Notes: generated from the letters alone by a model not told the origin. DNA of 60,645 bases from Clostridia bacterium (GCA_900751685.1 CAADSR010000257.1:1-60645); one strand, 5' to 3'. Positions 21,062 to 52,718 are shown, counted from the stretch's first letter. Numbers and translations: made by a program.

Positions 21062-21460
21062 ATGGCTAAAGTAGCAAAAAGAACTACACGAACAAGACGT
21101 CGTGATAGAAAAAATATCGAAAAGGGCGCGGCTCATATCCGTTCCACTTTTAACAATACAATTGTTACGATCACCGATACTGCCGGAAACGCAATTTCCT
21201 GGGCAAGCGCTGGCGGATTAGGCTTCAGAGGTTCCAGAAAGAGTACTCCGTTTGCTGCACAAACAGCTGCAGAAACAGCTGCAAAGGCAGCAATGGAACA
21301 TGGTATGAAGTCTGTTGAAGTTTATGTAAAAGGTCCTGGTGCAGGACGTGAAGCTGCGATCCGTGCATTGCAGGCAGCAGGTCTGGAAGTCAGCATGATC
21401 AAGGATGTTACTCCGATTCCTCATAACGGTTGTAGACCGCCGAAGAGAAGAAGAGTTTGA
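21062..21460 (+). CDS. rpsK: 30S ribosomal protein S11
   Basis: 132 aa with a canonical S11 sequence. Confidence 0.96.
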
Positions 21461-21498
21461 TGGATTGTATACATTGTATGTAAGGAGGAAACAACAGC

Positions 21499-22092
21499 AT
21501 GGCTAAAAATATGCAACCGGTACTCAAAAGATGTAGAACTTTAGGTATCGAGCCGTCGGTAATGGGCGTTGATAAAAGCTCGAATAAAAATCCGAAGCAA
21601 AGCAGAAAAAAGCAGAGCGAATATGGCCTGCAGCTGAATGAAAAGCAAAAAGTAAGATTCATCTACGGCGTATTGGAGAAGCAATTCAGAAAATACTATG
21701 TGATGGCAACAAAGAAACAGGGGATCACCGGTGAAAACCTGCTTCAACTTTTGGAATCCAGACTGGACAACGTTGTGTTCCGTTTAGGATTGGCAAATAC
21801 AAGACGTGAAGCAAGACAAATCGTAAACCATGGCCATATCCTGGTAAATGGTAAAAAGGTTGATATTGCTTCTTACCTGGTAAAACCGGGCGAAGTTATT
21901 TCTGTGAAGGAAAAAACAAAGAACTCTGATCATATGAAAGAAATCGTTGAAACGAACGCCTCCAGAGTGGTTCCGAAATGGTTAGACATGGACAAGAACA
22001 CACTTACAGGTAAAGTTATTTCTTTATCAGATAGAGATGACATTGACTTTGAAGTACAAGAGCACTTGATCGTCGAACTGTACTCTAAATAA
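21499..22092 (+). CDS. rpsD: 30S ribosomal protein S4
   Basis: 197 aa with a canonical S4 sequence. Confidence 0.96.
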
Positions 22093-45571: not shown

Positions 45572-45796
45572 ATGTCAGATATTAATAAACCAAGTATGCC
45601 ATCGTGTCCACCGTGTCCTTCCTGTCCGGTCTATCCCTGCGGCTGCGTTGGGTATGCGTATGTTCCGGTTCAGGAATTAGATAAAACATATGATCCTATG
45701 ACAGCATTGAGACAGGGGACCATTTTCCCTGAGTTGGACTTGCCGATGTGCGAATATGGGAAGGTTTGTAAAGCAGGAGGTAGTCTCAATGAATAG
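45572..45796 (+). CDS. cotJA: Spore coat-associated protein CotJA
   Basis: 74 aa, Cys/Pro-rich N-terminus, conserved AYVPVQ...GTIFPELDLP motif. Confidence 0.85.
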   Translation: MSDINKPSMPSCPPCPSCPVYPCGCVGYAYVPVQELDKTYDPMTALRQGTIFPELDLPMCEYGKVCKAGGSLNE

Positions 45797-46040
45797 AACA
45801 GAGATGCTCAATGCATTACAAAGCTATAATTTTGCAGCATATGATATGTTGCTTTATTTGGATACCCATCCAAAGGATAAAAAAGCATTTGAAATGTTCC
45901 GTGACCTTGTAGAAAAAACACGCCGTATGAAACAGGATTTTGAAAACCAATTCGGCCCGCTGACCCCTTATTCCGCAGCGCGTTTTGAAGAATTTAATTG
46001 GTTAGATTCACCATGGCCATGGGAAAAGGAGGGCAATTAA
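45789..46040 (+). CDS. cotJB: Spore coat protein CotJB
   Basis: MNRTEMLNALQSYNFAAYDMLLYLDTHP... typical CotJB. It overlaps the cotJA stop. SD GGAGG. Confidence 0.85.
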   Translation: MNRTEMLNALQSYNFAAYDMLLYLDTHPKDKKAFEMFRDLVEKTRRMKQDFENQFGPLTPYSAARFEEFNWLDSPWPWEKEGN

Positions 46041-46042
46041 GC

Positions 46043-46153
46043 ATGTTTAGTTATAATAAATTTCTAGAATTTCCAATCCGGATCAAAAATCCAAACCCCA
46101 GATTGGCGAATATAGTAATAACACAATATGGAGGGCCAAATGGCAATTGCTAA
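46043..46153 (+). pseudogene. cotJC: 5' fragment of cotJC (Mn-catalase-family spore coat protein), interrupted by the mobile element
   Basis: Good SD (AGGAGGG). MFSYNKFLEFPIRIKNPNPRLANIVITQYGGPNG matches the CotJC N-terminus up to the conserved QYGG.DG. Resemblance then ends and a stop follows 2 codons later. A full CotJC is about 190 aa. Confidence 0.8.
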
Positions 46154-46171: not shown

Positions 46172-47608
46172 TCATAAGCGGTATAGGATATCAAATTGCC
46201 GGCCGTCATCGCCTGTCTTGATGATGTCACCTATAAATTCCCTGGCGACCGTATTTTTTTGAACCGGCGAAAGGGAAGGGTCTTTTAAAGCCTCGATGGA
46301 CTGTGATATTTTTTCTTTTAGATTGTTTATTGTTGTTTCCCGGTCTTCTGTAGGCTGCATTTCCTGCTGTATCTGCTGGTTGACCTGGTCGATTTCTTTT
46401 TGAAGCTTTGCTTTGTTCTCCTTGTATTCTTCCAGAGTATCCACTCCATTTTCATATGCTTCTTTAACACGCCTCATACGGTTTTCAGCACGTTTGAGCT
46501 GGTCCTGGTATATTTTCATGTTCGGAGCGGAGGAAGGGTCTTTTTCGGGGATTTTTATGTCTATGCTCCCATTGATAAATCCCTCTAACTGGCTCAGTAT
46601 AAAAGCTTCTACCGTTTCAACTTTTATCCCGCCGTTGCCAGGGCAGGTGCCTTTGGAGCGGTTGTTGCAATATAAGTACCCGTTACAGTTTACGATGGGG
46701 CCGCCGCAGAGCCCGCAGTGGATCAGGCCGACAAGCCAATGGCTGATACTGTCTTTGGGTTTATACCATTTGCGGTAATGTTCCTTTTGTTCCTTCATGC
46801 GTTTTTGCACCTTCTCCCATGTATCCATATCAATGATCGCTTCATGCGACCCATCTTCAATGATGCTGTCCTCGTTATAATAATTCCGCCCGGTCTGCCC
46901 GGTAGGAGTCCAGCGGATCTTCCCGATATAAGCCGGATTGTTCAGCCAATACTCCACGGTCCGGTTCTCGATTTTATTTCCCCGGTGTGTCCGGACGCCC
47001 GCAGCATTCAAGTTTTTTGCGATCCGGAGCATACCGACGCCGGCGCTGTACCAGTCGAACACCTGCTTTATAATCCTGCTTTCTTCCTCTAAGGGCAGCA
47101 GCTGCTTCTCTTTCATCTGGTACCCAAAGGGAGCAATGGCCAAAGGCTCTCCCCGTTTGGCTTTTTCGGTCATGCCCCGTTTTACTTCTTCAGCCAGATT
47201 GATGCTGTAGTATTCATCCATGGCCTCGATCATGGCTTCAAACAGGATAGACATTTTGTCGTCCCCCAGGCTTTCACTGATGGAGATGACTTCAATGCCG
47301 AGCTGCTTCCGGAGCATGGACTTGTATACGATACTATCCTCCCGGTTCCGGGCAAACCGGCTGAACTTCCAAAGGAGGATCGCGTCAAAGGGCTTGGGCT
47401 TTAGTTTTGCGGTACCGATCATCCGGATAAAGCCGGCGCGCTTGTTTACCTTTTTCCCGCTGATCCCTTCATCCATAAAAATGTATTCTTCCGGGATAAT
47501 ATAGCCATTCCGTTTTGCATACTCCCGTATCGCTTTTATCTGGCTGTCAGGACTGTACTCGATCTGGTCATCCGTAGATACACGGATGTATGCAGCAGCT
47601 ATTTTCAT
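46172..47608 (-). CDS. Large serine recombinase (SpoIVCA/SprA/phiC31-type)
   Basis: N-terminal resolvase domain MKIAAAYIRVSTDDQ (catalytic Ser), recombinase domain, zinc ribbon (CGLCGG...C..........C), C-terminal coiled coil. Start at 47608 behind the SD AAGGAG. The stop lies about 20 bp from the cotJC junction. Confidence 0.9.
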   Translation of the reverse strand: MKIAAAYIRVSTDDQIEYSPDSQIKAIREYAKRNGYIIPEEYIFMDEGISGKKVNKRAGFIRMIGTAKLKPKPFDAILLWKFSRFARNREDSIVYKSMLRKQLGIEVISISESLGDDKMSILFEAMIEAMDEYYSINLAEEVKRGMTEKAKRGEPLAIAPFGYQMKEKQLLPLEEESRIIKQVFDWYSAGVGMLRIAKNLNAAGVRTHRGNKIENRTVEYWLNNPAYIGKIRWTPTGQTGRNYYNEDSIIEDGSHEAIIDMDTWEKVQKRMKEQKEHYRKWYKPKDSISHWLVGLIHCGLCGGPIVNCNGYLYCNNRSKGTCPGNGGIKVETVEAFILSQLEGFINGSIDIKIPEKDPSSAPNMKIYQDQLKRAENRMRRVKEAYENGVDTLEEYKENKAKLQKEIDQVNQQIQQEMQPTEDRETTINNLKEKISQSIEALKDPSLSPVQKNTVAREFIGDIIKTGDDGRQFDILYRL

Positions 47609-47753
47609 TATACGTTGCTCCTTAGTTTCAATTCTCACCCCTGTGTGAGGGGCGTCAATATGATTTTATTGTCATTTATGCAGGTCAAACTTGTATTAAA
47701 ACTCATTTTGTGGCAAACATTATTTTATTATGCTGTATAATGCATATAAAATT

Positions 47754-48629
47754 TTACTTTAGTATTTTTTGTTTCTCTTTTAAGAATTCTTCAGCAGTAA
47801 TAATATTATCATCCAATAAGTCCTTTAAAGAACGTAATGCATTTGATTTATCTAGCGTATTTATAGAAATATTTTTATTTTTTTCCTGTTCCATTTCTTC
47901 TATAAAACCAGCAGAAATAATACCAGTTGGTACAGCAACAAGCCCAATTCCCAGTAGTGCAATAATGGAACTAAACAGGCGGCCCCATCCTGTAATTGGA
48001 TAAATATCACCATAGCCAACGGTGGTAAAGGTAGCAATGGACCACCACAGTCCGGAAAAAGCATTCTTAAACACATCAGGCTGTACGGGGTTTTCCACAT
48101 TATACATTAATAAAGAAGAAATCACCATTAATATAAATACAACAATTAAAGAAGAAACCAATTGATTGGACTTTTGTTTTAGAACACCTCCTATGGTAGA
48201 GAGGGCAGAAGTATAACGGTTCACTTTTAATAAGTGGAAGACCCGTAGCAAACGCAGCATCCGGAGGACTTTTAAATCTATTGGCAGAACGAACGGAAGG
48301 TAAAATGGCAAAATAGAAATCAAGTCAACAAAAGCCATAAAGGAAAATATGTACCGGATCCGGGCACGTGTTGGAGATTTATCTGGATATAGATAATCAG
48401 CAGTCCAAACACGTAAGAAGTATTCAATTGTAAAAATAATAACAGATATCGTTTCAATAATAGAAAAAACAGATTTTGTATTTTCACTGATATTAAACGT
48501 AGTTGCAATCAAAAGACAGACATTAAATAAAATTAAGCAAAGTATAAACAAATCGAATATTTTACTTGAAATATCGTTATCTTCTGCAGCTTGAATAATT
48601 TCAAAAATCCGTCGTTTCAGTTTTTGCAT
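47754..48629 (-). CDS. 6-TM voltage-gated-type K+ channel with a C-terminal SHOCT-like domain
   Basis: Selectivity filter TTVGYGD. S4-like helix LRMLRLLRVFHLLK with a basic residue at every third position. C-terminus LRSLKDLLDDNIITAEEFLKEKQKILK resembles SHOCT. Start at 48629 behind the SD GGGGAG. Confidence 0.85.
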   Translation of the reverse strand: MQKLKRRIFEIIQAAEDNDISSKIFDLFILCLILFNVCLLIATTFNISENTKSVFSIIETISVIIFTIEYFLRVWTADYLYPDKSPTRARIRYIFSFMAFVDLISILPFYLPFVLPIDLKVLRMLRLLRVFHLLKVNRYTSALSTIGGVLKQKSNQLVSSLIVVFILMVISSLLMYNVENPVQPDVFKNAFSGLWWSIATFTTVGYGDIYPITGWGRLFSSIIALLGIGLVAVPTGIISAGFIEEMEQEKNKNISINTLDKSNALRSLKDLLDDNIITAEEFLKEKQKILK

Positions 48630-48645
48630 AAGAAACTCCCCTTTA

Positions 48646-49269
48646 TTATTTAACATATTTATTAATTTTATATGTTTTCTTATTATGTATCGGACAATAG
48701 TAGCTGTTGAACATGTGTCCGCTATTGCAGTCAGGCATTAAGCATTTGTGGTCTATACAGTAATTGCAGTGATCATTTGTACAGCGTTCATGGCAGCCAG
48801 TTTCTCTGCATTCGTGTATAAAGCAATAATAACTATTGATTTGTGCGGTATACTGACAATCAGGGATACTACAAAGACGTGTATTTCTAGGAGAAATATT
48901 ATTTTTAATTTGTGGATTAGTGTTTTGTTCTTGTTCTGGCAAACTGTCTTTGTTTGTTGATGGCTCTCCTTCTTCCAAACAGCGTCGTATAAATGCACGG
49001 CCATCCACACTGTTATCATCATTATCTTTATGAATTGTTCTATCCTCCCCACAAGATTTACATTTTGTATCCCGTGGAGCATTGACTTCCTCACAATTAG
49101 GACAAACCCAGCGTACTCCATTTGTAGAGTTAGTCGTAACGGTATTAGGCGATGCGTTGTATCTCATAGGGAAGATGTTTGAATTTAATGCATAATTTGC
49201 AATAATGATAACAGTACATAATAAGAATATTCCCGTAGCTATTCCGGCAATGAATTTTTTCATAAACAT
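48646..49269 (-). CDS. Membrane-anchored Cys-rich protein with zinc-ribbon and duplicated Cys/His motif
   Basis: N-terminal TM anchor. WVCPNCEEVNAPRDTKCKSCG is a RanBP2-like zinc ribbon. The C-terminal motif C-x2-PDC-x7/8-NSYYC-x-IH occurs twice. I recognise no family. Confidence 0.6.
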   Translation of the reverse strand: MFMKKFIAGIATGIFLLCTVIIIANYALNSNIFPMRYNASPNTVTTNSTNGVRWVCPNCEEVNAPRDTKCKSCGEDRTIHKDNDDNSVDGRAFIRRCLEEGEPSTNKDSLPEQEQNTNPQIKNNISPRNTRLCSIPDCQYTAQINSYYCFIHECRETGCHERCTNDHCNYCIDHKCLMPDCNSGHMFNSYYCPIHNKKTYKINKYVK

Positions 49270-49310: not shown

Positions 49311-50795
49311 TTACATAGATAAAGATTGCCGGTATTCTGTGGCTAACATTGTTTTGTTGAATTCTGCAGTTTTATCTATCTCCTGGACAAGAGTTTCTAA
49401 ATCATCAATATTGACATTAAAAAATTCTTTTCTTAAATTAACTTTGTTTGTTCTTTTATCATTGAGGCGATTATGTAACTCATTTTCCAGGTCTACAGCA
49501 TTTTCAGAAAAGATAAAGCTATGAACATCAAATGTAAAGGGAACAGATGCACTTCCTAGTTCCTTTATACGATCCATTGGATCCAGTCTTCTGGTCATGC
49601 CAATTTTAAAGATAGAATCACCAAAAGATCCTAGATTACTGATAACATAAACATAACCAGCTTTTCCATTTTGTAATTTAGTAATTTCTTCTTTTTTCTC
49701 TTCCACCAAAGATAGTTGTTGTTGAAGTTCCGCTATTTTACTTTGTAGGTCAAGAAGAAGAGTATCGTCAGTGCAACTTTTAATTTGCTGTTGAATTTCA
49801 TCAATTCGATTGATGTATTTTTTTTCTTCTGCTTCAACTTGCTTTTTTTGTTGTTCTAAAGCTTTACGTTCTTCTGCTTCTTGCCGCATTTGATCCCGTA
49901 ATGCTTGTTGTTCTGCACGTTCTTTTTCCTTCTTTATGTAATACTCATATTCTATCTGAATAGCTTTTTCAAATAGGAGTTCTATTTCAGAAATAAAGTT
50001 ATTCAAAGTTGGTGCAATAGACTGATTCCCATCAGAAGCAATTTGAATATATTTTCCAATCATATTTTTAAAGCTTTCCATACATTTATCAAAAGTCGTA
50101 AATTTTAATCCTGTGAGAATATTTTGTAATTCTGCACGTAAGGCAATTACCATCAATTGATAAATGGCACGGTTTGATTTTGTTGTATATCGTTTTTCAT
50201 ATCGTTTCAGTACATCTTCAATAATTTTATTATTTTCTCTATTCAGAGTTCTCAGTTCTTTGATATCCATGGAATGAAGTGGAAGCTCTAGAGAGGGGGT
50301 AAGTTGTTCTAGATCAGTTTCTTCCTCTGAAGTTAATTGTAAGATATTTGAAGGTGTTGTACTAATAAGAGAATAGTCATTTACAATAGTTTGAATTTTT
50401 TTATAAAGAGCTTTACAAATTTTTAATTTATTTTTACCTAGCTCAATTTTTAGTTGTTGGCTCTTATATTCTTTTTGAGCATCCTCAAATTGAAGTTTTG
50501 TCGCCTCACATTTTAGTCGGAATTCCTCTGTTTTATTTTTATAAGAATCTATGAGCTTATCTATTTCTAGTTGAGTTTTTTCTAATTCCGAGTCGCGTTC
50601 TGCAACAATAGAAGACTTCTTTTCATTAATCTGATCAATTTGAATTTTGGTGATTTCGAGTTCTTTCTTTAAATTTTCTAATGCCTGTTTGGTAGAGAGT
50701 ATATATTCTTCTACGTGTTTTAATTCATCTTGTTTTTTTTCAATATCCTTCTCGATATTAAACAAGATTTTTAAACGTTCCCAAAAATTAAACAT
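49311..50795 (-). CDS. DUF4041-like coiled-coil protein with C-terminal T5orf172/MUG113 (GIY-YIG superfamily) domain
   Basis: About 380 aa of Lys/Glu-rich coiled coil, then GYVYVISNLGSFGDSIFKIGMTRRLDPMDRIKELGSASVPFTFDVH...LENELHNRL, which is T5orf172-like. Start at 50795 behind the SD AGGAGG. Confidence 0.7.
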   Translation of the reverse strand: MFNFWERLKILFNIEKDIEKKQDELKHVEEYILSTKQALENLKKELEITKIQIDQINEKKSSIVAERDSELEKTQLEIDKLIDSYKNKTEEFRLKCEATKLQFEDAQKEYKSQQLKIELGKNKLKICKALYKKIQTIVNDYSLISTTPSNILQLTSEEETDLEQLTPSLELPLHSMDIKELRTLNRENNKIIEDVLKRYEKRYTTKSNRAIYQLMVIALRAELQNILTGLKFTTFDKCMESFKNMIGKYIQIASDGNQSIAPTLNNFISEIELLFEKAIQIEYEYYIKKEKERAEQQALRDQMRQEAEERKALEQQKKQVEAEEKKYINRIDEIQQQIKSCTDDTLLLDLQSKIAELQQQLSLVEEKKEEITKLQNGKAGYVYVISNLGSFGDSIFKIGMTRRLDPMDRIKELGSASVPFTFDVHSFIFSENAVDLENELHNRLNDKRTNKVNLRKEFFNVNIDDLETLVQEIDKTAEFNKTMLATEYRQSLSM

Positions 50796-50812
50796 GCCAT
50801 TCCTCCTAAATA

Positions 50813-50840
50813 TTGACAAAATTTTCTGTTGTGTTATAAT
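50813..50840 (+). promoter_or_regulatory. Near-consensus extended -10 promoter pointing rightward, against the flanking genes
   Basis: TTGACA (50813-50818), 16-nt spacer, TGTTATAAT (50832-50840). Confidence 0.6.
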
Positions 50841-50846
50841 ATTTAT

Positions 50847-50922
50847 AGGAGATAATTGGATGGATTTGATAATTGCTCCTAAGTCTACAGATACTTGCAC
50901 TATCTGTAGACTTTTTTATTTT
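50847..50922 (+). ncRNA. Candidate ~75-nt antisense sRNA between the lipoprotein and DUF4041 genes
   Basis: Predicted start about 6-7 nt after the -10 element. It ends in a 12-bp perfect hairpin AGTCTACAGATA/TATCTGTAGACT (50882-50912) plus TTTTTTATTTT on the + strand only. It contains the direct repeat GATAATTG twice. Confidence 0.5.
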
Positions 50923-51838
50923 AATAAAAGTCGGTTAGACTCATTTCAGCGGGTGAAGTGGTATCATCACCTTCAACAATTCCATAGAAGTTATAAGTGT
51001 CCCCAATATCAAACTTGTGGGGAATGGTAGAATATCTTGAATGAATCTCATACTCATTTTTATCATCATCTACTACAATAAAACTTTGACCTCCATAGGA
51101 GGGGGAGCTTGATAAAGTCATGGTTTTTACCCTACCATGTACGATGTTTTTCATTCCATTATTCATAATCCCATTCTTTGCTGTATCGTAATCCAGCTTA
51201 GAATATTCAGAACGTTCCTGTTCAGACATTTTGACGTTATCTTTGCAGATGACATAACAATAATAGTGAGGTTTGTTAAAAATATTATCATAATCACCTA
51301 CAGTGTATACATAAAAATCACCACTATCAAAAACATCACTGATGGAAACGGTGGAAAATGAATTAGAAAGCTTCTGGCTATTATTCTTAGCCGTTTCAAT
51401 ATCCATTGTTTCATCCGTTACCATAAAGGTAGCAGCAAAAACCTCTTTTAATAGAGAAACATTATCAGTATTAAATTCTATTGTCCAGTGCTTCTGATGA
51501 GGTCGGTCTGTATCTGCGAAAAAGCGGATGATATAGTCATTAATATTCAGTTTTATGGATTTATAATTATCAACTATAGAAACCATAGAATCAATAGTTG
51601 CAGACGAGTTTAGCTCTTTCAATGCAGAGACATATTTTTGATATGCCACAGCCATATATTCTGGAATAAGAGAGGTATTGTTAATAATATCTTTCATAAA
51701 ATACTTTGTTTGATTACCGGATCTTTCTGTATACAAAGTAGGGGTTAATGTGGGCGAAGGTGTTACATTAACAGAGCGATTGTTGCTGCATGAAGTAATT
51801 AACACACACACGATTAATAGTATAAATATTTTTTTCAT
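50921..51838 (-). CDS. Lipoprotein of unknown function
   Basis: MKKIFILLIVCVLITSCSNN lipobox. Start at 51838 behind the SD AAGGTGG, 20 nt after the ImmA-like stop. Confidence 0.65.
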   Translation of the reverse strand: MKKIFILLIVCVLITSCSNNRSVNVTPSPTLTPTLYTERSGNQTKYFMKDIINNTSLIPEYMAVAYQKYVSALKELNSSATIDSMVSIVDNYKSIKLNINDYIIRFFADTDRPHQKHWTIEFNTDNVSLLKEVFAATFMVTDETMDIETAKNNSQKLSNSFSTVSISDVFDSGDFYVYTVGDYDNIFNKPHYYCYVICKDNVKMSEQERSEYSKLDYDTAKNGIMNNGMKNIVHGRVKTMTLSSSPSYGGQSFIVVDDDKNEYEIHSRYSTIPHKFDIGDTYNFYGIVEGDDTTSPAEMSLTDFY

Positions 51839-51858
51839 TATTAGTTGCCACCTTAAAT

Positions 51859-52296
51859 TTATAAACATTGAATTCGTTTTTCGATAATTCTTTTATCTAT
51901 ACCGGTGATGCTGACAATTTGTTGCTTAGAAAATTGATTGTTAATATAATTTTTTAAATCAAAATCATCCAATAGCATATAACTGGCAAGTAAATTTGCT
52001 TCATTTTCATATTCGTTCGTTGCAATGTATGTATGCCTGTCTAAAAATATGCGATTCATTTTTGCGTGTAGAAAAGCATGGGAAAGCTCATGAGCCAGGG
52101 TTTGCAACCTGTCATGTGTATTTAATTTTTCATTCAAGTAAATAATTTTTATCCGTTTATAGTGCTGAAAGAATCCATGTGTTCCATTGGGGAGCGGTGT
52201 ATCTATAATAATAATATCCATTGCTTCAGCAAGCTCGTATGGATTTAAAGTTTTAAATCTATATTTTATTATTTTAGCTTTTTTGGCAATATCCAT
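51859..52296 (-). CDS. ImmA/IrrE-family metallopeptidase
   Basis: HEXXH motif in LAHELSHAFLH. 145 aa, immediately downstream of the XRE repressor gene. Confidence 0.8.
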   Translation of the reverse strand: MDIAKKAKIIKYRFKTLNPYELAEAMDIIIIDTPLPNGTHGFFQHYKRIKIIYLNEKLNTHDRLQTLAHELSHAFLHAKMNRIFLDRHTYIATNEYENEANLLASYMLLDDFDLKNYINNQFSKQQIVSITGIDKRIIEKRIQCL

Positions 52297-52310: not shown

Positions 52311-52718
52311 TTATTTTTTATATTTATTAGGTGTATATTTCTCCTTCGCTTTTTCTTTTGCCATAGCCAGTCCAATGCGCATAGCAGATTTTATTTGCTC
52401 TAATTCGTCCTTAGTAGCTGGGACACCATCAAACATTAACCCTTCCTGCTTTTCTAAGTCTGAAAACGTGTTTTCTAAAATAGTTTCAATTTCTCTTTCT
52501 TCTTTATTAATAGAATCTGCTGTAGTTTTGTCTGTACGCTCTAAAAGATAGTCAATAGAAACATCAAAAAAATCAGCTATTTTTTTGAGCATTTCATAAT
52601 CAGGTTGACGTTTGCCTGTTTCATATAAAGAAACAGAACTTTCTGCCACTCCTATTAACTCACCAAATTCTTTCATAGATAAGTCACGTTGGTGTCGCAA
52701 TTCTCTTAATCGAAACAT
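52311..52718 (-). CDS. XRE-family HTH repressor (CI/ImmR-like)
   Basis: LRELRHQRDLSMKEFGELIGVAESSVSLYETGKRQPDYEMLKKIADFFDVSIDYLL is a classic XRE HTH, followed by a C-terminal extension. Confidence 0.85.
   Translation of the reverse strand: MFRLRELRHQRDLSMKEFGELIGVAESSVSLYETGKRQPDYEMLKKIADFFDVSIDYLLERTDKTTADSINKEEREIETILENTFSDLEKQEGLMFDGVPATKDELEQIKSAMRIGLAMAKEKAKEKYTPNKYKK

Follow-up and report, generated by a model that had tools for sequence, protein, structure and literature searches.

Analysis of a 60,645-nucleotide (nt) stretch of DNA from a Clostridia bacterium (GCA_900751685.1 CAADSR010000257.1:1-60645; the whole stretch is hereafter called the window) revealed, on the minus strand at 47754–48629, a gene for an intact subunit of a six-helix K+ channel bearing a voltage sensor. 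The gene is a rare-tailed example within a catalogued, uncharacterised family of prophage-borne voltage-gated-type K+ (Kv) channels: its product ends in a SHOCT domain, and it is solitary cargo in the variable slot that runs from the repressor genes to the integrase of a tailed prophage, with no convincing terminator between them. The Kv identity was assigned because Pfam, sequence matches in PDB, an AlphaFold2 model and Foldseek agreed on the fold, and the protein is predicted, with high confidence, to form a homotetrameric K+ channel in the membrane of the lysogen. The gene and its parts are as follows.

47754–48629, minus strand: Kv-type K+ channel with SHOCT tail, 291 residues (open reading frame with stop codon at 47754–47756; Pfam, phrog_7872, AlphaFold2)
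48636–48643, minus strand: Shine-Dalgarno sequence AAGGGGAG, read directly, 6 nt 5' of the ATG at 48629
48213–48572, minus strand: voltage-sensor domain S1–S4, residues about 20–139 (AlphaFold2 helices, S4 charges, counter-charges)
48213–48275, minus strand: S4 segment with the basic ladder K120, R123, R126, R129, H132, K135, R138
47895–48170, minus strand: pore module S5-P-S6, residues about 154–245 (Ion_trans_2 match, invariant filter)
48006–48026, minus strand: TTVGYGD filter, T202-T-V-G-Y-G-D208, invariant in 69 homologues
47757–47894, minus strand: swapped C-terminal tail, residues 246–291, a polar linker plus a SHOCT two-helix hairpin (SHOCT match, homology break, GC content)
47760–47840, minus strand: SHOCT hairpin within the tail (Pfam PF09851)

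The Pfam search, run on a 300-residue form that begins nine residues earlier at an alternative in-frame ATG (48656), matched Ion_trans (PF00520) at 1.5e-36 over profile positions 2–240 of 241 and Ion_trans_2 at 2.4e-16. The AlphaFold2 model, a single chain built from an alignment of the 69 homologues, had a mean predicted local distance difference test score (pLDDT) of 88.8 and a six-helix Kv layout in which S6 runs as a single helix to residue 273. Foldseek matched this model to KCNQ, Kv4, Kv2 and Kv1 with a probability of 1.0 and template-modelling scores (TM-scores) of about 0.6–0.7, and the nearest PDB sequences were KCNQ2/5, Kv4, Kv2, Kv1 and Shaker, with E values down to 4e-30. Three features by which such channels are recognised were found: the six-helix S1–S4 plus S5-P-S6 layout, an S4 ladder with counter-charges, and the T-V-G-Y-G filter. 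The ladder positions 120, 123, 126, 129, 132, 135 and 138 read K, R, R, R, H, K and R, with His at 132 instead of Arg or Lys; the counter-charges E69 in S2 and D102 in S3 are invariant among the 69 homologues; and S6 contains a Pro, as in known Kv channels. The initial annotation of this DNA, made from the sequence alone, had described six hydrophobic segments, a basic residue at every third position of S4 and a canonical TTVGYGD filter; the first agrees with Ion_trans and the AlphaFold2 helices, the second holds with H132 as the one His, and the filter lies at T202–D208. The profile search and structure prediction that it had proposed thus returned Ion_trans, a SHOCT match and a single-chain Kv fold. 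The channel also belongs to an existing phage protein family, phrog_7872, which is annotated as of unknown function (E 3.4e-59, residues 18–255 on profile positions 8–227 of 254). Homologues start at the position equivalent to 48629, and this, together with the strong Shine-Dalgarno sequence 6 nt upstream, led us to keep 48629 as the start and 47754–48629 as the coordinates, as first annotated.

The tail, put at about 50 residues in the initial annotation, extends 46 residues beyond the conserved core. Its last 27 residues matched SHOCT (PF09851) with a score of 28.2 bits, the curated cut-off being 27 (E 1.5e-6, profile positions 2–28 of 28), so that the assignment stands, though by a narrow score. 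In the model, the helix to residue 273 is followed by a turn (274–278) and a second helix (279–290) with pLDDT of 86–94, forming the two-helix hairpin expected of SHOCT. The description of SHOCT as an "oligomerisation" domain did not fare as well, being a hypothesis that the only published test did not support (PMC3581485); a later study predicted inner-leaflet membrane anchoring (PMC11237479). The Ion_trans plus SHOCT architecture itself has been on record since 2013 (PMC3581485).

Comparison of the window protein with its closest relative in the host's taxonomic family, G021, revealed 85% identity up to ...GFIEEME and unrelated sequence beyond this point, at both the protein and the DNA level; the GC content was 0.23 in the tail versus 0.35 in the channel core. 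A tail-only word search among 5.8 billion proteins returned no close relative of the window tail, and no donor was found in the host assembly. The usual tail of close relatives is [YF]CPYCG[KH]K, which follows a short acidic linker and contributes one CxxC per subunit; because of this single CxxC, it suggests a half zinc knuckle, with a candidate zinc site common to several subunits of the tetramer. We know of no description of this CPYCG motif in a channel tail. Further tail types among the relatives were IAKIREILEKYDSKNL, other helices, or none. SHOCT tails occurred in 6 of the 120 best clusters, four of which (the window protein and three others) reached the Pfam cut-off. None of 66 IMG/VR loci and none of 78 metagenome loci carried a SHOCT-tailed channel, the tails there being CPYCG, absent or other helices, and a degenerate DNA pattern for the SHOCT motif KLLDAGAIT hit nine loci in IMG/VR, none of them a channel. 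Apparent SHOCT tails in Lachnospiraceae loci, where tblastn alignments reached the tail, were rejected as TrkA_C tails.

The IQ-TREE tree required at least four changes of the SHOCT label, and the approximately unbiased (AU) test (LG+G4, 33 rows, with the SHOCT group named after the tree was seen) rejected a single SHOCT clade (difference in log-likelihood 160, p 9.7e-7). The variety of tail types, the break in homology with G021, the label changes and the AU rejection together indicate that SHOCT has replaced the CPYCG tail several separate times on phage-borne K+ channels, as judged from the sequences. We infer that the tails are interchangeable cytoplasmic modules that would aid subunit association or docking under the membrane and would in this way tune gating.

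The genes around the channel are listed below.

46043–46153, plus strand: 5' fragment of cotJC, the left end of the prophage (Mn_catalase model positions 1–35)
46172–47638, minus strand: large serine recombinase, the prophage integrase, with its likely start at ATG 47608 (Pfam Resolvase, Recombinase, Zn_ribbon_recom)
47638–47652, minus strand: inverted repeat CCCCT-CACAC-AGGGG, read directly, with no T-run after it
48646–49269, minus strand: membrane-anchored Cys-rich zinc-ribbon protein, 207 residues, just 5' of the channel (weak zinc-ribbon matches only)
49311–50900, minus strand: SNIPE/PD-Lambda-1 homologue with a coiled coil and a T5orf172/GIY-YIG-type domain (PADLOC; Pfam MUG113 and T5orf172)
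50921–51868, minus strand: lipoprotein-like protein, 315 residues (open reading frame, N-terminal signal and Cys; no significant family)
51859–52296, minus strand: ImmA/IrrE metalloprotease (Pfam Peptidase_M78, 3.3e-15)
52311–52718, minus strand: XRE-family repressor, first gene of the leftward lysogeny string (Pfam HTH_3, 3.7e-16)

Read leftward, all on the minus strand, the order is XRE, ImmA, lipoprotein-like protein, SNIPE, Cys-rich membrane protein, channel and serine integrase; the gaps from the repressor to the channel are 41 nt or less or short overlaps, and 145 nt then separate the channel stop from the recombinase ATG. This AT-rich gap holds the GC-rich inverted repeat, which could be a regulator site, as a candidate read from the sequence. 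The likely recombinase start was chosen on an alignment with the G021 recombinase that begins at residue 11. The channel thus lies inside the prophage, between repressor and integrase and on the repressor strand, as expected of a moron, and the initial annotation was right to call it the terminal cargo gene of a mobile element, the last before the serine integrase. The AT-rich accessory setting was likewise borne out: GC content was 0.32 across 47.7–54 kb, with 0.43–0.46 around it, and 0.29–0.34 at 48–54 kb, versus 0.42–0.47 in the surroundings.

Left of the recombinase lie cotJA, cotJB and the first 35 residues of cotJC (cotJ region 45572–46153). The rest of cotJC (Mn_catalase positions 29–198) was found on another contig of the assembly, C294, at 21379–21846 (L266 19380–19847), where it follows phage genes for a head protease, tail sheath, tape measure, baseplate, fibre and endolysin. 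The two cotJC halves and the structural genes on C294 identify the element as a tailed prophage inserted in cotJC. The cotJC remainder on C294 stands directly after the phage endolysin gene and a large RCC1-like gene, and the sporulation gene cotJC would be intact only once the prophage excises.

Among 163 other species genomes of the family, five contained a close homologue (E 1e-60 or better), as did one of the 73 high-quality ones. The channels found in the family were in the following surroundings.

G021, 85% identity: directly 5' of a large serine recombinase (28% identical to that of the window), beside thrC
G069, 64% identity: without an integrase or lysis-gene neighbour
G005, 63% identity: serine recombinase one gene away
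G003, 61% identity: tyrosine integrase 1.8 kb away
G160, 60% identity: adjoins a holin-amidase pair
G017, 41% identity: serine recombinase two small genes away, then a terminase gene

Proteins with a Cu_amine_oxidN1 domain adjoin the channel in G003 (fused to a serpin; L012 7533–9188) and G005 (L013 2460–3089), and weak matches to this domain stand beside the channel in L152 and L171. Comparison of the window and G021 over 241 core codons gave proportions of nonsynonymous (pN) and synonymous (pS) differences of 0.094 and 0.81 (saturated), respectively, and a pN/pS of 0.12, the only ratio reported since the synonymous divergence (dS) of this pair is saturated. This value indicates purifying selection on the core, so that selection keeps the protein in two prophages whose integrases and insertion sites are unrelated. 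The host assembly, which is 82% complete, contained the window channel as its only detected K+ channel pore (PF07885) and at least two K+ uptake loci of the TrkH/KtrB type.

Beyond the family, the channel core is widespread; 6930 of 8000 scored candidates reached E 0.001 or better, the best being 55–66% identical. A scan of IMG/VR with the single window protein gave no match, and an alignment-based scan recovered 82 relatives with identity up to 64%. Serine- and tyrosine-recombinase hidden Markov models built from the loci of relatives were run against all open reading frames there. An integrase of either type lay within 3 kb downstream on the same strand in 36 of 66 IMG/VR loci, a count that overstates independent cases since this database is preselected for viral content and holds near-duplicates, and it was the next gene (within 150 bp) in 19; an XRE gene was often directly 5' of the channel. 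The survey counts show recurrence and geometry, not rate. The same geometry was found in Lactobacillus phage PLE2 (XRE, metalloprotease, channel, further genes, integrase), JNU_P5 (repressor, further genes, channel, further genes, AbiD-like gene), Dulem virus 33 (XRE, channel, further genes, integrase) and the Enterococcus contig Efs 1-1-1 (XRE, ImmA, lipoprotein, channel, serine recombinase), and in L144–L147 the channel was the sole gene between XRE and integrase. Listeria "phage" contigs that matched the pore and tail were set aside, as they had copper-resistance-like and MscL-like neighbours and lacked a SHOCT tail.

In a 165-row tree, the Lachnospiraceae and Ruminococcus channels with one or two TrkA_C domains formed one well-supported chromosomal clade. 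Members of this sister clade (L023–L096, e.g. L026 10001–11191 and L029 9974–10951) join a ligand-sensing tail to the voltage sensor, and no integrase lies near them. The window protein fell in a short-tailed clade in which a few chromosomal rows are scattered among those from viral or prophage contexts. A deeper clade of tail-less channels of about 240 residues consisted of viral contigs only plus the prophage-borne G017, and most of these adjoin an integrase. Its rows are L130–L167 (e.g. L144 9995–10729), several with the channel alone between XRE and integrase.

These distributions bear on two further points of the initial annotation. Its view that a channel carried by a mobile element is unusual was not supported, since such channels recur on the integrase side of phages (the 36 of 66 IMG/VR loci), PLE2 carries one in the same slot and phrog_7872 already exists. 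Its proposal that the clade be surveyed for mobile association gave a divided answer: the closest relatives are phage-borne, but distant ones with TrkA_C or CPYCG tails are chromosomal, and among the best 80 loci of species-representative genomes (41–59% identity) an integrase lay within 3 kb in one of 76. On this evidence, the broader channel family also contains ordinary chromosomal channels. The suggestion in the initial annotation of host manipulation or an ion-flux effector role stands as a plausible hypothesis.

The slot shared by these channels also holds defence genes. In the window, SNIPE/PD-Lambda-1 is encoded two genes from the channel; the PADLOC match (2.2e-82, profile positions 29–472 of 491) marks it as a full-length homologue of SNIPE, a known anti-phage gene with a published mechanism (PMC13190303). 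Unlike the E. coli protein, the window homologue has no obvious N-terminal transmembrane helix, and the membrane-anchored zinc-ribbon protein is encoded next to it. When ten slot neighbours in related phages were tested, AbiD (twice), PD-Lambda-1, PDC-S19, a membrane-anchored DEDDh protein (PDC-S48-like) and a Schlafen-type protein matched models of defence or candidate-defence genes. The membrane-anchored DEDDh/RNase_T exonuclease (L104 9238–10269; PADLOC DEDDh 3.7e-36, PDC-S48 3.7e-29) lies between the channel and a serine integrase in an IMG/VR phage. By gene content, the lysogeny slot qualifies as a defence hotspot.

The zinc-ribbon membrane protein was considered as a sensor partner of the channel and rejected, as tblastn found no match to it in 160 related loci. 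No gene recurs with the channel among the related loci as a conserved partner of the kind that RexA is to RexB. Because the zinc-ribbon protein does not recur and the channel is the sole gene from XRE to integrase in some phages, the cassette would therefore be expected to work alone.

Solely from the position of the gene and its neighbours, we tentatively infer that the channel is expressed in the lysogen as an exclusion or abortive function against superinfecting phages; this reading is favoured because of the slot position and the defence genes found in the same slot of related phages. The channel would be made in the lysogen, where its expression is assumed, and would act against superinfecting phages. 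DNA entering from a phage disturbs the membrane potential and the K+ balance; a voltage sensor coupled to a K+ pore could sense this disturbance and answer it by K+ flux, and exclusion or abortive infection would result without a separate sensor protein. A stronger version is more doubtful: the Kv cassette might be a one-protein anti-phage device whose sensor detects the disturbance caused by the genome or by early proteins and whose K+ flux blocks entry or aborts infection, while the exchangeable tail, be it a CPYCG zinc knuckle, SHOCT, a plain helix or nothing, would set assembly or threshold.

Several observations weigh against an exclusion or abortive role. The association with defence is guilt by position, and such slots hold fitness genes too. 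K+-selective opening upon depolarisation would tend to repolarise the membrane rather than collapse its potential, which makes the abortive logic less direct than for RexB. Expression of the channel in the lysogen is an assumption, and consensus scans found promoter- and terminator-like sites no commoner than in shuffled sequence. No PADLOC family matched the channel at E up to 0.01. The preselection of IMG/VR tempers its integrase counts, and in a sample of 80 loci from unselected metagenome contigs an integrase lay within 3 kb on the same strand, downstream of the channel, in 5 of the 42 with at least 2 kb downstream; a rough background for such proximity is approximately 1%, estimated from the 10 recombinase genes that the 2.83-Mb host assembly contains. 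As for the tail, the SHOCT match, though real, is marginal at 1.2 bits above the cut-off, the turn Gly of other SHOCT-tailed channels is Asn in the window channel, and a size-exclusion chromatography test of SHOCT self-association was negative (PMC3581485). Our literature search found no link between a Kv-type channel and phage defence.

Somewhat less probable is a contribution to lysogenic conversion, in which the channel would supply a K+ conductance that the lysogen otherwise lacks; this would aid K+ homeostasis, help the cell through osmotic or acid stress, or set its membrane potential within the gut, and the prophage would gain through host fitness only. No K+ channel pore other than that of the window was detected in the assembly (82% complete), and 158 of the 163 other species of the family yielded no close homologue, so that the phage would add a new capacity; purifying selection on the core and the ordinary chromosomal channels with ligand-sensing TrkA_C tails among distant relatives are consistent with such a role. 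However, the host is already equipped with at least two uptake loci of the TrkH/KtrB type, the phage copies have lost the regulatory TrkA_C and many are bare 240-residue channels, and anti-phage genes make up most of the other content of the slot.

A function in the phage cycle itself appears improbable. Made early after infection or at induction, the channel would depolarise or repolarise the cell, lower turgor, time the holin or block co-infection as Kcv does. Holin triggering depends on membrane potential, and the channel stands beside a holin-endolysin cassette in G160, L102 and L106; Kcv channels, which are active at entry, stop multiple infection (PMC6163359). Most loci nevertheless place the gene on the repressor and integrase strand, outside the early-lytic and late operons, its sporadic occurrence among related phages indicates that it is not essential, and virion association cannot be inferred. 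Least likely of all is a passenger of no current use, a host channel captured by imprecise recombination for a brief stay in the cargo slot: the slot is an AT-rich mosaic, no conserved partner accompanies the channel and the PLE2 channel was reported identical to a host protein (PMC6163359), but the pN/pS of 0.12 (synonymous sites saturated) for two prophage copies that adjoin unrelated integrases (28% identity), the recurrence of the gene across Clostridia, Lactobacillus and Enterococcus phages and the deep clade of about 240 residues, from viral contigs only save the prophage-borne G017, argue against it. Our approximate ranking therefore places exclusion or abortive infection first, followed by the K+ fitness factor, the phage-cycle role and the passenger, in this order.

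Voltage-sensor K+ channels are among the best-understood membrane proteins. Here Kv channels emerge as standard, interchangeable cargo beside the integrases of temperate phages of gut and lactic-acid Firmicutes, in a slot common to proven anti-phage genes. What a phage gains from a voltage-gated K+ conductance in its lysogen is a question that can be approached in culture, for example with PLE2 in L. casei BL23 or with Enterococcus prophages, and the repeated exchange of CPYCG for SHOCT offers a natural experiment on how SHOCT acts on a tetrameric membrane protein. If the one-protein device were true, it would be a widespread, undescribed class of prophage immunity in Firmicutes, with a sensor-pore logic as in excitable cells. 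Taken alone, the window is a modest result, a clean, rare-tailed example of its family.

Among prokaryotic voltage-gated K+ channels, KvAP of Aeropyrum pernix and KvLm of Listeria monocytogenes are chromosomal genes whose voltage-gated K+ currents have been measured. The window channel shares with them the six helices, the S4 arginine ladder, the S2 and S3 counter-charges, TVGYGD and a Pro-containing S6, and its best solved sequence matches are KCNQ2/5 and Kv4.2; unlike them, it is carried by a prophage, lacks T1 and RCK domains and ends in a SHOCT tail. The phrog_7872 and IMG/VR channels (e.g. L103, L144–L147) have the same core and occupy the same slot directly upstream of a serine or tyrosine integrase, often after XRE, whereas their tails are CPYCG, absent or other helices, not SHOCT.

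The PLE2 channel, gp27 (YP_009282368.1, "ion transporter"), combines Ion_trans, Ion_trans_2 and SHOCT (30 bits) as the window channel does, and the two elements share XRE, an ImmA-type metalloprotease, channel and integrase on one strand. Greiner et al. 2018 catalogued it among phage K+ channels without a role (PMC6163359). However, gp27 shows just 26% identity over pore and tail, a weaker Ion_trans match (1.5e-18) and four reported transmembrane helices versus six, and the PLE2 integrase is annotated without a type, whereas that of the window is a serine integrase; the SHOCT fusion of PLE2 is probably separate in origin.

Among exclusion systems, RexB of phage lambda and Sbash gp31 are prophage-expressed membrane ion-channel proteins encoded beside the repressor and proposed to alter the membrane potential on superinfection (PMC6426596), and Hailong provides a precedent for an ion-channel effector (PMC13586616). 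RexB and gp31 differ from the window channel in having four helices and neither a K+ filter nor a voltage sensor, and they require a cytoplasmic sensor partner (RexA or gp30), whereas the Kv cassette has no conserved partner. Chlorovirus Kcv, which acts at entry and has been implicated in excluding further infection (PMC6163359), resembles the window channel as a virus-encoded tetrameric K+ channel (the tetramer being predicted for the window protein) with a canonical filter; Kcv itself is a minimal pore of two helices that a eukaryotic virus carries in its virion, whereas the window channel is a six-helix protein of a prophage lysogeny module.

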